Below are positions 2,632 to 18,220 of a stretch of DNA of 22,624 bases, in pieces. The stretch's first letter is position 1, and each line of letters opens with the position of its first letter. The stretch is from Candidatus Thorarchaeota archaeon (lineage in GTDB: Archaea > Asgardarchaeota > Thorarchaeia > Thorarchaeales > Thorarchaeaceae). The position numbers were made by a program, and so were the translations under genes. The notes under the pieces are model-generated. The model was not told the origin of the DNA. It made no database searches and saw only the letters and a list, made by a program, of their open reading frames with translations. The stretch covers positions 1 through 22,624 of the forward strand of contig SDNP01000038.1 in the NCBI GenBank assembly GCA_004524445.1. The letters are read 5' to 3'.

Positions 2632-3264
2632 CTACTTTGTATCGAGCCGATTTTCAAAATTGGCTAGTTGCTCTATCAGCTTTTCTTGTCTCACCGCTGT
2701 CGTGACATCCCCTCTAGTTTTTTCGACGATTCTCCTTGCAACATCAGACTTCCTTCTTAGATTACGGACAAGCGAGTCAGGGAAGTCGAATGTCTGTAGT
2801 TCCTCGAGAATATCCTCCATGATGCTGAGAAGTCCTTTGGCGCCATCAACATCATCGCCTCTCAGAAGTTCCAGAGATGCACGTCTCAGCTCTCCTATTG
2901 TATCTGCAAGTCCAGTGAGGTACGGTCGGGCAGGAATACTATATTCTTCTGGGCCTGTCAATCTCCGTTCATTGAGTATGGAGAGGACATTTACTGCCTC
3001 AGTTAACTCTTGATATGCTGTATCGAAGTACTTTGAAACGGTAACAAACTTGCTCTCACTTGCTAGTTGTCTTCCTTTCTGAATCAGTTCGTACGCTTCA
3101 TCTACTTTCTTATGTGCATCATCGAACTGACCACGATGAGATGCCTTTACGGACTGACCGCATAGTCTGACAGCATCTCTAGAAACAGGAAGCACCTTCT
3201 CTCTAACCTCATCATCTGCTTCTATTTCTTTTCTAATCGGCTCTAGCAGTTTACCTATGTCCAT
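2632..3264 (-). CDS. Archaeal translin/TRAX (C3PO-like) RNA-binding nuclease
   Basis: All-helical 210 aa with REKVL..SR, YQELTEA, YLTGLADTIGELRR and LRRKSDVAR motifs. ATG at 3264 avoids overlap with tyw1. Confidence 0.88.
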   Translation of the reverse strand: MDIGKLLEPIRKEIEADDEVREKVLPVSRDAVRLCGQSVKASHRGQFDDAHKKVDEAYELIQKGRQLASESKFVTVSKYFDTAYQELTEAVNVLSILNERRLTGPEEYSIPARPYLTGLADTIGELRRASLELLRGDDVDGAKGLLSIMEDILEELQTFDFPDSLVRNLRRKSDVARRIVEKTRGDVTTAVRQEKLIEQLANFENRLDTK

Positions 3265-3283
3265 CCTTTTCCCCGTCGTATCT

Positions 3284-4267
3284 CTATCCGAGCCTCTTAA
3301 TTTGTTTTCGCCGCGACAAAAGCACAACTTTGCTCTCGATTTGTTCATCCAAAAGATAGTATCCCGTCAATGCCGCCAATTTTTCTGAGAATGCTCTGAT
3401 GTCATTATGTGATGGAGAATTGGTGATAGATAACCTCCCTCTGGATGAACCAATGTTCATGTATGCTTTAATCTCCACAAAATCCGGTTCTCCAACAAGT
3501 ATCATGTCGGCATAGGAGCGCACATCATGCATATTCCTCTGTGCGACCATGGTAAGACGATTCACAGTCCTGCAACTGATGCTCTGTAAAAGCTCTTGAC
3601 TTTGCAACAATTTCTGCCATGCATCATTAATCAGAGGGTGAAGAAGCTGCCGATGGGTTCTCTCATCAGGAGCAGCAATTGTAACGTATAGCTGAGTTGG
3701 AGGCGTGATTTCTTCTAGAACTTCAGGAAGAGTTCCATTCGAAACCAGAAAGGAAGTCATTCCTCTGTTATCAATTTCATCTATCAACTCACTTAAATCG
3801 GGATAGAGTGTAGGCTCCCCCGCAAGTGAGATTGCAACATGTTTCGGATTTCGTGCTTCACGATACATCCTCTCACTCACATCAGCACCAGCTTCCGGGT
3901 TATACCCGCCGAGTGAACGGAGATTTGCCATAATTGTAGCATCAAGCAACTCCTTTGCAGGAAGTGTGTCTTCAGGCTTTACATCAATCTGATTCCAATT
4001 GACTGAAATGTCTGCAGGTGTCACTCGCCAACAAAAGTCGCACACTTGTGTGCATTTATCAATTAGAGGCGTCATTTGAAGACAACGATGTGACTCAATC
4101 CCGTAGAATCGTTGCTTGTAGCAGGTATCCCCATACAAGAGGCTCTTTTTCTGCCACTGACACGCCTTGAATGCACCACGTTCGCCCAAGAGATGGTATC
4201 CTTGACCAAGGAGTTTCTCTCGTAGTTGGGATGGCATGGTGGTATCCAAGACTCTCATCAAATGCAT
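3284..4267 (-). CDS. tyw1: 4-demethylwyosine synthase Tyw1/Taw1 (radical SAM)
   Basis: CYKQRFYGIESHRCLQMTP, CTQVCDFCWR (CxxxCxxC), HVAISLAGEPTLYP, FLVSNG and FVEIKAYM..GSSR. Start may be 4258 or 4237. Confidence 0.95.
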   Translation of the reverse strand: MHLMRVLDTTMPSQLREKLLGQGYHLLGERGAFKACQWQKKSLLYGDTCYKQRFYGIESHRCLQMTPLIDKCTQVCDFCWRVTPADISVNWNQIDVKPEDTLPAKELLDATIMANLRSLGGYNPEAGADVSERMYREARNPKHVAISLAGEPTLYPDLSELIDEIDNRGMTSFLVSNGTLPEVLEEITPPTQLYVTIAAPDERTHRQLLHPLINDAWQKLLQSQELLQSISCRTVNRLTMVAQRNMHDVRSYADMILVGEPDFVEIKAYMNIGSSRGRLSITNSPSHNDIRAFSEKLAALTGYYLLDEQIESKVVLLSRRKQIKRLG

Positions 4268-15482: not shown

Positions 15483-15857
15483 TCAGCAGCTACTGCATTT
15501 ACCATTTTTGGCAACAATGCTTCTGCACTCGTCAATTATATCCCCGAATGCCTGGTAGAAGTATTTGGCCGCAGCATCTCTCCCTTTTTCCCCCTTTTCT
15601 GTGAGTGTATAAATGATCTCTCGTCCGTCTCGTTTTCCCTTGATGAATCTCCCCTCTCTCAAATCCTTGATTGCTGGATAGATGGTCCCAGGAGTTGGTT
15701 TAGTTCCACGGCGTTCTTCAATTTTTTCTGCAATTTGCTGGCCATTCAGAGCTTCCTTTCCAATCTCCCACAGAATTTGGAATGTCAGGAAGCCCCTCAT
15801 ATCGCAACAGTCGGGGGGACAGCATAGTTCCTCATTTGGTTCATTCTCGGTTGACAT
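15483..15857 (-). CDS. PadR-family transcriptional regulator with Cys-rich termini
   Basis: RGFL..QIL, NGQQI, PTPGTIYPAIKDL and YTLTEKG form the PadR wHTH pattern. N-terminal CCPPDCC and C-terminal C-x9-CSSC. ATG at 15857 with GGAG upstream. Confidence 0.88.
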   Translation of the reverse strand: MSTENEPNEELCCPPDCCDMRGFLTFQILWEIGKEALNGQQIAEKIEERRGTKPTPGTIYPAIKDLREGRFIKGKRDGREIIYTLTEKGEKGRDAAAKYFYQAFGDIIDECRSIVAKNGKCSSC

Positions 15858-15912
15858 TGGGCACAATACTCCACATGGCCATCATTTGATGTATGCATAC
15901 CATCCAATACAG

Positions 15913-15953
15913 TTATATACATATTGGGTGCCCGATATATTGGATACCCGATA
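15913..15953. promoter_or_regulatory. TATA-like box followed by two tandem 16-bp quasi-palindromic operator boxes in the padR/arsM divergent region
   Basis: TTATATA at 15913-15919, TATTGGGTGCCCGATA at 15922-15937 and TATTGGATACCCGATA at 15938-15953. The boxes are 14/16 identical and both approximate the palindrome TATYGGGTACCCRATA. Confidence 0.7.
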
Positions 15954-15975
15954 AAATATTACAGAGTGATGACCC

Positions 15976-16839
15976 ATGTCCAAAAAGAAAAACGTACAGG
16001 AAATGACTACTGACGAAATCAAACACGAAGTAAGGAAGGCATACTCCATAGTGGCCGGACGTGGCACACAATCTTCTAGTCCTTGCTGTTCCAGCTCCAC
16101 TGCTTCTGAAGAGTCAAGTTCCTCACAATCCAGCTGTTGTGACTCTCTGAGAAATAAATCTGGAGAGGCCTCCAATGCCGATTGCTGTGGAACATCTGCA
16201 AGTCCACGTGCAGCAGAATACGCCAAATCCATGGGCTATGATTTATCTGAGATTCCAAATGCAGCAAGCGGATCTTTTGCTGGGTGTGGAAACCCAGTGG
16301 CACTAGCCGGACTCAAACAGGGTGAGGTTGTGCTTGACCTAGGAAGCGGTGCAGGTTTGGATGCATTTGTTGCAGCGAGAAGGGTTGGAAAGACCGGCCG
16401 TGTAATTGGCGTGGATATGACTCCTAAAATGCTGGCAAGTGCTCGTAGAAGTGCTGCTGAGATGGGGCTTGCCAATATTGAGTTCAGGGAAGGCGATATC
16501 GAGGACGTGCCAGTCAAAGACAACTCTATTGATGTGGTCATTAGCAACTGTGTGATCAACCTTGCGCCGGATAAAGCAAAGGTGTTCAAGGAATCTTATC
16601 GTGTACTTCGTCCTGGTGGTCGACTAATGGTATCCGACATTGTCTTGAATGAAGAGCTTTCAGAGGAAGACCGCAACAATATTGCAAAATACACAGGCTG
16701 CCTTGCTGGTGCAATATTGGAGGATAAGTACCTTAATTATATTCGAAACGCCGGTTTTGAAAAAGTGAGTGTTGTTGAAAAAGAAGGTTGGGGACAAGCA
16801 GTCAGCGCTAGAATCGAAGCATTCAAGCCTAAGGTTTGA
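15976..16839 (+). CDS. arsM: Arsenite S-adenosylmethionine methyltransferase
   Basis: VRKAYS..A, GCGNP (C104), VLDLGSGAGLD, GVDMTP.M, ISNCVINLAPDK (C192), VLRPGGRL.VSD and GCLAGA (C242). Confidence 0.9.
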   Translation: MSKKKNVQEMTTDEIKHEVRKAYSIVAGRGTQSSSPCCSSSTASEESSSSQSSCCDSLRNKSGEASNADCCGTSASPRAAEYAKSMGYDLSEIPNAASGSFAGCGNPVALAGLKQGEVVLDLGSGAGLDAFVAARRVGKTGRVIGVDMTPKMLASARRSAAEMGLANIEFREGDIEDVPVKDNSIDVVISNCVINLAPDKAKVFKESYRVLRPGGRLMVSDIVLNEELSEEDRNNIAKYTGCLAGAILEDKYLNYIRNAGFEKVSVVEKEGWGQAVSARIEAFKPKV

Positions 16840-17071: not shown

Positions 17072-18220
17072 CTAGCCTTTTGCACTCCTTTCAACAGGTA
17101 TGTATTCAATGTCCCACCCAAAATGCCGGGGTCCGAATAGCGACAATCCTCTATCGTTTCTCCAACGAACATCATTGGCTATGCCAATCACCTCTACTCG
17201 ACTTCCTCGCGTTAGTTGATCCTCCCAAGGAGTCAGACCCTCTGCGGTTTCAGCATCCACAACACAGATGAGGTCAGGGGATGTTACAAAAGGCACTCCA
17301 TCAAGCCATGAACAAAGGTACTCATTCTTGTACCAAATACGTATCTCTGACTTCTGCGCATCACGGGTGGGTGACACTCCCTCGATGAACACATCGCCTG
17401 TGACAAACCCCCCTGCATCGTCTCGCTTGCACTCTTGGACTTCTCCTGTGAAGAGCCGGTACCCCTTTTCACAATCGATTACTGCATCAACAGGATCGCC
17501 TTTTGATTCCCGCGCATCATGGACCGCCCTTCCAAGATTAACTGAACGGGAAACAGAACCAGGGATTGCCGCTCGCTTCCAATCCGAACCGGATGCAGGA
17601 CACCGAGCCATACCCACTAAACCCCCCGATGCCACAGCAACCTGGCGAGCAATCCTCTCAGCCCTACTATCATCTACCACCTCTTCCAGCATCACAACAT
17701 CGCCAAAAGGAGAAACGATTGACATGGGTGTAATGGATAGTCCTACGAGATTCGTGGTTGAGCTCTCTATCTCCGGTTTTGCTCTACCGCAACAGTCCCC
17801 GTCAATAGTGACAAGACCGAGCTTCGCTGCAGCATACATGGGAGCTACACCATTAGCCGGACCAATCTCCGAGGCAATCAAACCATAGGGTTCCATGTCA
17901 ATGGCTGAGATGAGCCGTTTAGCAGCCAGAATCAACGGGTCCTGCTTGATGCGCTTCAAACCCGCAACCGACTGACGCATTTCTTCTGATACGCCTCCAC
18001 CAACAAGACCAACAATGAACACAAGTTGATTGTCAGGAATATCTTCGAGCGGGGCCACCTCGAATCCATCCCCTGACCCATATATACTCTCAATCTTCTC
18101 TCGAGCATCTGTTTCGCTTCCTCCACCACCGCAGCCCAAGATCTTCGATCCTGTGATGAAGTACTCGAGTTCCTCTCTTGTTAGCACCTGTATTACCCGG
18201 CTGCAATAGTATGTGCACAT
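17072..18220 (-). CDS. DUF917 family protein
   Basis: ILGCGGGG, EIGPANG, DGDCCGRAKPE, AIPGSVSR..LG, LFTGEV, GGFVTG, YKNEYL, PDLI, FGPRHFG..IEYIP. True start may be GTG at 18187. Confidence 0.87.
   Translation of the reverse strand: MCTYYCSRVIQVLTREELEYFITGSKILGCGGGGSETDAREKIESIYGSGDGFEVAPLEDIPDNQLVFIVGLVGGGVSEEMRQSVAGLKRIKQDPLILAAKRLISAIDMEPYGLIASEIGPANGVAPMYAAAKLGLVTIDGDCCGRAKPEIESSTTNLVGLSITPMSIVSPFGDVVMLEEVVDDSRAERIARQVAVASGGLVGMARCPASGSDWKRAAIPGSVSRSVNLGRAVHDARESKGDPVDAVIDCEKGYRLFTGEVQECKRDDAGGFVTGDVFIEGVSPTRDAQKSEIRIWYKNEYLCSWLDGVPFVTSPDLICVVDAETAEGLTPWEDQLTRGSRVEVIGIANDVRWRNDRGLSLFGPRHFGWDIEYIPVERSAKG

Follow-up and report, generated by a model that had tools for sequence, protein, structure and literature searches.

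A tetracysteine PadR-family protein as a predicted dedicated repressor of the arsenic methyltransferase gene arsM in Thorarchaeota and related archaea

To our knowledge, no protein family other than ArsR/SmtB has been established as a source of repressors that control ars resistance genes in response to arsenite or methylarsenite. ArsR/SmtB members such as R773 ArsR, AfArsR, CgArsR1, and SpArsR are small dimeric winged helix-turn-helix (wHTH) autorepressors that are encoded beside ars genes and act by derepression, and ArsR-type repressors bind arsenite, As(III), or methylarsenite, MAs(III), through two or three cysteine thiolates, often including a vicinal pair, which is N-terminal in CgArsR1. 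Here we describe a small regulator that resembles these proteins in its predicted mode of action but belongs to another family: the product of padR, a gene divergent from the arsenic methyltransferase gene arsM on a 22,624-nucleotide contig (hereafter the window), which is the entire contig C44 of a 2.79-Mb, 90% complete host genome (G000) that belongs to Thorarchaeota according to the names of its homologs. We computed the family and fold of this protein, its gene linkage, its operator, the locality of its regulon, and its co-occurrence and co-loss with arsM, and this comparative evidence makes it highly probable that the locus encodes a dedicated, autoregulated arsM repressor with a defined operator. 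The protein differs from ArsR/SmtB regulators in being a PadR by both Pfam and fold, in carrying a tetracysteine ahead of helix 1, in its operator TATYGG-N4-CCRATA, and in having arsM as its only apparent target; it would work like an ArsR without being one, since the HTH_5 domain that defines ArsR was searched for and not found.

The nearest relatives within its own family are the short PadR proteins LmrR, RosR, TA0346, Rv3488, and ChrI, which share with it the fold, the length, and palindromic operators; they dimerize through the C-terminal helix and act as local repressors of detoxification genes, both of which we predict here as well. None of these five has been reported as an arsenic sensor or as a carrier of CC-x3-CC, and the operator in the window differs from the classical PadR box, which is ATGT-N8-ACAT. 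ChrI is a PadR-type regulator that is induced by chromate (PMC2936356), and together with metal-bound Rv3488 it shows that PadR proteins can associate with inorganic stress. A full-text literature search recovered no paper linking PadR with arsM, arsenite sensing, or an arsenic methyltransferase. Asgard archaea have been reported as major carriers of arsM in sediments, and the cold-seep survey that found arsM and acr3 in these archaea did not discuss regulators (PMC10060404).

The two genes, the region between them, and the cysteines of the regulator are located as follows.
15483 to 15857, minus strand: padR, encoding a 124-aa short single-domain PadR-family regulator, with its stop codon at 15483 to 15485.
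15804 to 15824, minus strand: codons of the tetracysteine tag C12-C13-P-P-D-C17-C18, just ahead of helix 1, the proposed sensing site.
15486 to 15527, minus strand: codons of C111, C121, and C124, lineage-specific accessory cysteines.
15858 to 15975, no strand assigned: divergent control region of 118 bp between padR and arsM.
15976 to 16839, plus strand: arsM, encoding a 287-aa arsenite S-adenosylmethionine methyltransferase with a Cys-pair-rich N-terminal region.

The association between padR and arsM is conserved well beyond the window. We examined 80 loci recovered by a scan of one genome per prokaryotic species, which span Thorarchaeota, Hermodarchaeota, Promethearchaeota, and a few Bathyarchaeia, and in 78 of them an arsM ortholog (41 to 88% identity) is directly divergent from padR, so that the homologs are indeed linked to a metalloid gene. 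The spacing in the window is exactly 118 bp (15858 to 15975), matching the divergent arrangement of about 118 bp on which the original prediction had been built. When all flanking open reading frames (ORFs) were clustered, every other neighbor family was confined to 26 loci or fewer, and the remaining neighbors of padR and arsM were unrelated housekeeping or detoxification genes; a distant relative with CCPPPECC is likewise divergent from arsM. All 80 loci are free of linked metal ATPase, CopZ, mer, and czc genes. Several other genes were considered as partners and set aside: the 207-aa protein downstream of padR and the Metallophos, MutS-like ATPase, and S-Me-THD-like proteins occur in only 1 to 3 of the 80 loci, and TBP, aspartyl protease, hydrolase, CbiQ, DHODH, and serine dehydratase genes are lineage specific.

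The same association is seen in the phyletic distribution of the two genes. Among 151 evenly drawn Asgard genomes, padR is a single-copy gene present in 42 and arsM is present in 84; 41 of the 42 PadR-positive genomes also carry arsM, with the two genes adjacent in 38, counts that are descriptive rather than a statistical test because the genomes are related. One of the 42 (G038) represents a weak match to a Cys-free PadR that falls outside the family. In the family to which the window itself belongs (f1), all seven genomes that lack PadR (91 to 98% complete) also lack arsM. The sole genome with PadR and no arsM (L120, positions 2995 to 3795) has a padR without the first CC pair, a promoter, or an operator, the frame being fused to approximately 157 unrelated N-terminal residues from an upstream ORF; because of this fusion, the missing CC pair, and the lack of a nearby operator, it looks like a decaying remnant. 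In family f21, where padR is unlinked from arsM, the gene that follows padR encodes an ArsN2-like acetyltransferase of the GNAT type (115 bits, against a cut-off of 125).

The assignment to PadR is well defined at the level of both sequence and structure. The original prediction had described a PadR wHTH with C12-C13-x3-C17-C18 and with C111, C121, and C124, and translation together with the Pfam score confirms this description: the cysteines lie at positions 12, 13, 17, 18, 111, 121, and 124, and the 124-aa protein matches PadR (PF03551) at 35.2 bits against a cut-off of 27. Translation starts at an ATG; an in-frame TTG at 15866 would extend the protein by 3 residues. No match of the protein to HTH_5 (PF01022), which with NF033788 marks ArsR/SmtB metalloregulators, was found at an E value of 0.01 or lower, and Penicillinase_R (CopY/BlaI, PF03965) scored 19.5 bits, under its cut-off of 22.6. 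The family profile matches solved PadR proteins with E values of 1.7e-8 and weaker. An AlphaFold2 model built from a 69-sequence alignment (mean predicted local distance difference test [pLDDT], 86.9) shows a wHTH with helices at residues 22 to 34, 39 to 50, and 56 to 68, a strand pair at 72 to 85, and a long C-terminal helix at 87 to 118. The closest solved folds (Foldseek, probability 1.00) are the short PadR proteins RosR, TA0346, LmrR, and Rv3488, and the length of the protein, its wHTH, and its one long C-terminal helix fit the short PadR subtype (approximately 110 to 125 aa). Modeled as a homodimer, the protein reached an interaction prediction score from aligned errors (ipSAE) of 0.56, compared to 0.00 for the best control; of 30 proteins with a solved one-chain pair, 20 attain this mark, as does 1 of 23 solved single chains, and the pass may reflect only likeness to known structures, because PadR dimers have already been solved. 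The homodimer runs have at least 92% of contacts in common with a partner pLDDT of at least 79, and the predicted interface comprises residues 11 to 20, 92 to 115 (including 110 to 112), 118 to 119, and 121.

Conservation of the cysteines separates the two ends of the protein. In the 120 closest homolog clusters, which have 57 to 100% identity to the PadR of the window, CC-x3-CC is kept in 118, of which 108 read CCPPDCC, and none of the genome loci linked to arsM lacks the motif. Alignments A1 and A2 show no variation at C17 and C18, and the context of the tag reads CC-D-M-R-G, followed by helix 1. The cysteines of the C terminus vary: a terminal CxC or CxxC occurs in 94 of the 120 clusters and an equivalent of C111 in 24, and many PadR proteins of Hermodarchaeota and Promethearchaeota have exactly four cysteines, all within the N-terminal tag. 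The expectation that the cysteines would be conserved thus stands for the N-terminal tag and falls for the C-terminal residues; since the latter are not generally conserved, any universal sensing site must be the tetracysteine alone. An exhaustive profile search of the wider family recovered many members with only C-DMRG or CC-DMRG, and the tetracysteine appears to have been elaborated from an older position that had one cysteine.

The control region between the two genes contains the following elements.
15913 to 15919, no strand assigned: likely shared TATA element TTATATA, read from sequence, which reads TATATAA towards padR.
15922 to 15937, no strand assigned: predicted operator O1, TATTGGGTGCCCGATA, an exact match to TATYGGNNNNCCRATA.
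15938 to 15953, no strand assigned: predicted operator O2, TATTGGATACCCGATA, contiguous with O1 and situated between the TATA element and the start codon (ATG) of arsM.
15900 to 15909, no strand assigned: CCATCCAATA, a degenerate half-site that lies between the TATA element and padR, read from sequence.

The operator consensus TATYGG-RYRY-CCRATA was first read from intergenic regions aligned by eye, and the search was repeated with the core ATYGG-N4-CCRAT only, leaving the flanking bases free; with this core alone, the flanking T and A reappear at 99% of the sites, and the spacer again consists of alternating purines and pyrimidines. We surveyed 73 padR-arsM intergenic regions against 1.05 Mb of flanking DNA, and 67 of the intergenic regions contain this conserved 16-bp palindrome, 53 of them in two or more copies, at a density 206 times that of the flanks, where nearly all sites are attributable to start-codon misassignments or to clusters before a nitroreductase gene. 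In the window, where 0.10 operator matches would be expected by chance, two are seen, with O1 starting 2 bp after TTATATA, and no perfect site other than O1 and O2 exists anywhere in the 2.79 Mb of the genome. A wider regulon in the host genome was therefore rejected, there being no more perfect sites; the single site with one mismatch (contig C56, position 5715) lies between the ends of convergent genes. TTATATA likely acts as a shared TATA element, a role suggested by its sequence and position, and in related loci the corresponding position is occupied by an A/T-rich, TATA-like element directly next to an operator. Most other lineages have a full operator site between a TTTAAA element and padR, whereas the clade of the window has the half-site only. 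Another candidate for a padR operator, GTATGCATAC at 15891 to 15900, found no support, as even L001 and L002, the closest loci, do not keep it. The operator is retained before padR in the arsM-lacking loci L014, L073, L118, and L119, and it is absent from 16 Asgard arsM loci without this PadR (0 sites in 102 kb); judged from these loci, the motif tracks padR, not arsM.

Operator copies also occur away from the padR-arsM intergenic regions. In 10 loci of Hermodarchaeota and Promethearchaeota, a nitroreductase-family gene has 2 to 3 operator copies between the padR end and the gene (L037, 2449 to 2509; L047, 10422 to 10483; L056, 1779 to 1840; L057, 8897 to 8957; L061, 2686 to 2746; and five more loci). 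In L118 and L119, both of family f21, a padR with CC-x5-CC is divergent from a nitroreductase gene, and the ArsN2-like GNAT gene comes after padR. The nitroreductase is a probable second member of the regulon.

The partner gene encodes a conventional arsenite methyltransferase. The ArsM protein scores 299.2 bits against NCBIfam NF008823 (arsenite methyltransferase; cut-off, 263), and at least 75 of 77 orthologs keep its Cys71, Cys104, Cys192, and Cys242. Alignment of the protein with CmArsM, whose structure is solved, matches the Cys motifs GCGNP, SNCVINL (SNCVxNL), and TGCLAGA (GCLxGA), and three of its cysteines align with catalytic cysteines of CmArsM, whose four are C44, C72, C174, and C224; the first conserved cysteine sits a few residues away from its CmArsM counterpart.

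Several further observations concern arsM and its surroundings. The N-terminal region of ArsM (window positions 16080 to 16190) is Ser rich and of low complexity, with CC pairs at residues 37 and 38, 54 and 55, and 70 and 71, of which only the last is conserved among orthologs. In some Thorarchaeota (L021, L031, L046, and L060) the arsM-padR spacer is 420 to 490 bp long, and the N-terminal ~55 residues of ArsM, with the CC pair among them, appear as a separate small upstream ORF that adjoins a second Cys-containing ORF of approximately 46 aa; these small ORFs could reflect a split gene, a frameshift, or genuine microproteins. One in-frame TAA or TAG codon occurs within the matched arsM region of each of G064, G088, G070, G047, G065, G145, G017, G003, G038, and G025, where the match may extend upstream of the true start, or another cause may apply. 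Two metatranscriptome libraries from one study each contain one short contig with at least 99% identity to internal parts of arsM (16057 to 16253 and 16391 to 16638); these contigs cover neither padR nor the control region, contigs of this kind do not reveal transcription, its start sites, or its level, DNA carry-over is possible, and they were not used as evidence. Downstream of arsM, on the opposite strand, an S-Me-THD-like (DUF917-type) protein is encoded at 17072 to 18220; it scores far under the NCBIfam thiohydantoin desulfurase cut-offs and lies beside arsM in only one other locus.

The host genome also encodes a classical ArsR. The original prediction had noted the lack of an arsR gene, which is true of the window, where no HTH_5/ArsR match was found anywhere on contig C44, and does not extend to the genome: contig C53 encodes an acr3 (281.5 bits, 1.3 under the cut-off), followed by an ArsR/SmtB gene whose product has an EICQCEI motif (67.3 bits; cut-off, 55) and then by a permease. 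Because this acr3-arsR module is present elsewhere in the genome, PadR is not a replacement for ArsR in the cell and is instead an arsM-specific addition beside a classical efflux ArsR. The region (L089, 503 to 3952) is a conventional ars island, in which a nitroreductase-like gene is divergent from acr3 and the permease has a weak match to SO_0444-type Cu/Zn efflux transporters.

Asgard arsM genes without this PadR are often preceded by another kind of putative regulator. Among the small upstream ORFs scanned at such loci, 7 of 10 encode AbrB/MazE-type proteins, which are AbrB/MazE/SpoVT-type (PF04014) proteins of 93 to 125 aa that precede arsM on the same strand at the following positions.
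AbrB-type loci: L110, 3860 to 4156; L115, 2671 to 2958; L116, 2642 to 2983; L117, 3881 to 4255; L122, 2675 to 2971; L123, 3751 to 4041; L125, 3889 to 4176.

These proteins have a nearly invariant CC right before the DNA-binding domain (GCCH[VI]EG) and either a second CC 7 to 9 residues upstream or an internal VCCI, and their homologs are named Heimdallarchaeota. The AbrB-type CC protein may be a second non-ArsR arsenic regulator. Other Asgard arsM genes are flanked by a MarR-like protein with CCC and NCCEG (L107, 3923 to 4399), by a different PadR-like protein with a C-terminal SCCPDG (L114, 2383 to 2775), and by an ArsR with an N-terminal SCCKDYC and a CVC (L111, 4168 to 4548). From these sequences, the occurrence of CC tags on unrelated arsM-adjacent regulators looks like convergent design.

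Taken together, we predict that this PadR is a thiolate-based metalloid repressor on a new scaffold; repression of arsM, the identity of the ligand, and derepression by arsenic are what we infer from the arrangement of the locus. The dimeric single-domain protein would repress arsM and, in most lineages, its own gene. Two dimers would bind the abutting O1 and O2 directly downstream of the TATA element, where they would cover the expected arsM transcription start, as is the usual mode of archaeal repressors, and keep the archaeal pre-initiation complex from assembling. As effector we propose a trivalent arsenical, namely As(III) and possibly MAs(III) or Sb(III), held as thiolates by the N-terminal tetracysteine before helix 1, at the modeled dimer interface; once bound, it would shift the wHTH domains and free the DNA, which would restrict arsM production to times when arsenic is present, with As(III) efflux through acr3 in the same cell remaining under the separate classical ArsR. 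The reasons for this choice are the invariable arsM target, the two vicinal Cys pairs, the convergence among arsM-adjacent regulators, and the ArsN2-like neighbor in f21. As(III) binds three thiolates and MAs(III) binds two; the As(III) site of ArsD consists of C12, C13, and C18, that of CgArsR1 of an N-terminal CC and one further cysteine, and the synthetic tetracysteine tag CCxxCC binds biarsenicals. The likeness of the PadR tag to ArsD (C12-C13-x4-C18) and to synthetic CCxxCC, in which close vicinal Cys pairs chelate trivalent arsenic, is a lead only; the protein has no sequence or fold relationship to ArsD (no ArsD match), and ArsD hands As(III) to ArsA, whereas PadR is a DNA-binding family. 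The whole explanation, including arsenical sensing through the tetracysteine, is in our view plausible and the one toward which we lean.

Several points weigh against this explanation. The effector is a purely inferred ligand, and since As(III) is already covered by an ArsR in this cell, a second As(III) sensor needs a reason. The first CC pair is missing from two close homolog clusters, and the Cys segment of the model has a pLDDT of approximately 67, which is of moderate confidence only. The regulon of Hermodarchaeota and Promethearchaeota also holds nitroreductase and flavin-reductase genes, and distant relatives have one cysteine before helix 1 and lie beside glyoxalase, GNAT, aldo-keto-reductase, or thioredoxin-like genes, a context resembling the pattern typical of general thiol-based electrophile or redox sensors.

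These last points lead to the main rival, an unlikely but substantive alternative in which PadR is a general thiol-based electrophile or redox sensor (QsrR, YodB, or NemR-like) whose cysteines before helix 1 are alkylated or oxidized by quinones, aldehydes, or other thiol-reactive compounds; equally unlikely is its corollary, that arsM is one member of a detoxification regulon and arsenite is at most one of several inducers. As in PadR, a conserved cysteine marks the N-terminal start of helix 1 in the wHTH repressors QsrR and YodB, whose regulons likewise include nitroreductase, flavin reductase, and glyoxalase-family genes. The operator-bearing nitroreductase genes and their divergence from padR in f21 fit this alternative, as do a flavin reductase gene after arsM in approximately 13 loci (Hermod-type), DinB after padR in 5 loci, and single-Cys C-DMRG relatives beside glyoxalase, GNAT, aldo-keto-reductase, and protein-disulfide-oxidoreductase genes, though most of these distant relatives are on contigs of less than 2 kb and the context is readable only for P0126 and P0124. 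The closest solved fold is RosR, which has been described as an oxidative-stress regulator. QsrR and YodB, however, belong to another wHTH family and use a single cysteine where PadR has four, and the target of PadR is invariably arsM, which in 78 of 80 loci is the sole partner conserved in all lineages. The operator is found nowhere else in the genome of the window, the expansion from one cysteine to a tetracysteine is specific to the arsenic-linked clade, and the vicinal Cys pairs of unrelated arsM-adjacent regulators fit a metalloid bound by two or three thiolates better than they fit single-Cys alkylation. The two readings can reasonably be combined: a Cys sensor of the electrophile type may have been elaborated into a tetracysteine selective for arsenic.

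It is improbable that the tetracysteine is instead a structural Zn or Fe-S site serving folding or dimerization, with PadR a constitutive or otherwise controlled regulator of arsM. Residues 11 to 20 do fall within the predicted dimer interface, and the tag is conserved as strictly as the wHTH core, but solved PadR proteins dimerize without any Cys motif, tags of this kind are also carried by unrelated scaffolds next to arsM, and vicinal CC pairs are poor ligands for one Zn or one Fe-S cluster. Still less probable is that PadR senses a different soft metal, for example Cu(I), Cd(II), Hg(II), or Zn(II), in the manner of CopY, with the Zn-thiolate site of the DNA-binding form displaced by the inducing metal; here a Cys-rich tag on a wHTH, the Penicillinase_R/CopY-type match (weak, at 19.5 bits against 22.6), and the structural neighbor Rv3488, a PadR solved with bound metal, are set against the invariable arsM target and the lack of linked metal ATPase, CopZ, mer, or czc genes across the 80 loci.

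Returning to arsenical sensing, selectivity of PadR for methylarsenite is an attractive possibility because ArsR already reads As(III) in the same cell. We also regard a broader reading as quite possible but somewhat short of probable: Asgard archaea and Bathyarchaeia may run arsenic methylation through ArsR-independent sensors in which N-terminal CC-xn-CC tags were grafted repeatedly onto unrelated scaffolds (PadR here, AbrB/SpoVT in Heimdall-type genomes, and a MarR-like protein elsewhere), with the PadR type perhaps reading methylarsenite instead of arsenite. Joining a Cys-pair tag to any DNA-binding domain would then amount to a general, convergent way of building sensors for trivalent arsenicals, and the two Cys pairs of the tetracysteine would be offered to methylarsenite, the product of ArsM.

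If arsenical sensing by this protein is borne out, PadR would represent a second scaffold for such sensors, and the existence of a second and probably a third would show how easily metalloid sensing evolves. The defined pair of a 124-aa protein and a 16-bp operator would be available for orthogonal arsenic biosensors, and the system is small enough to be studied wholly in vitro or in a heterologous host. For the uncultured Asgard archaea themselves, it would provide the first testable regulatory circuit for arsenic methylation.

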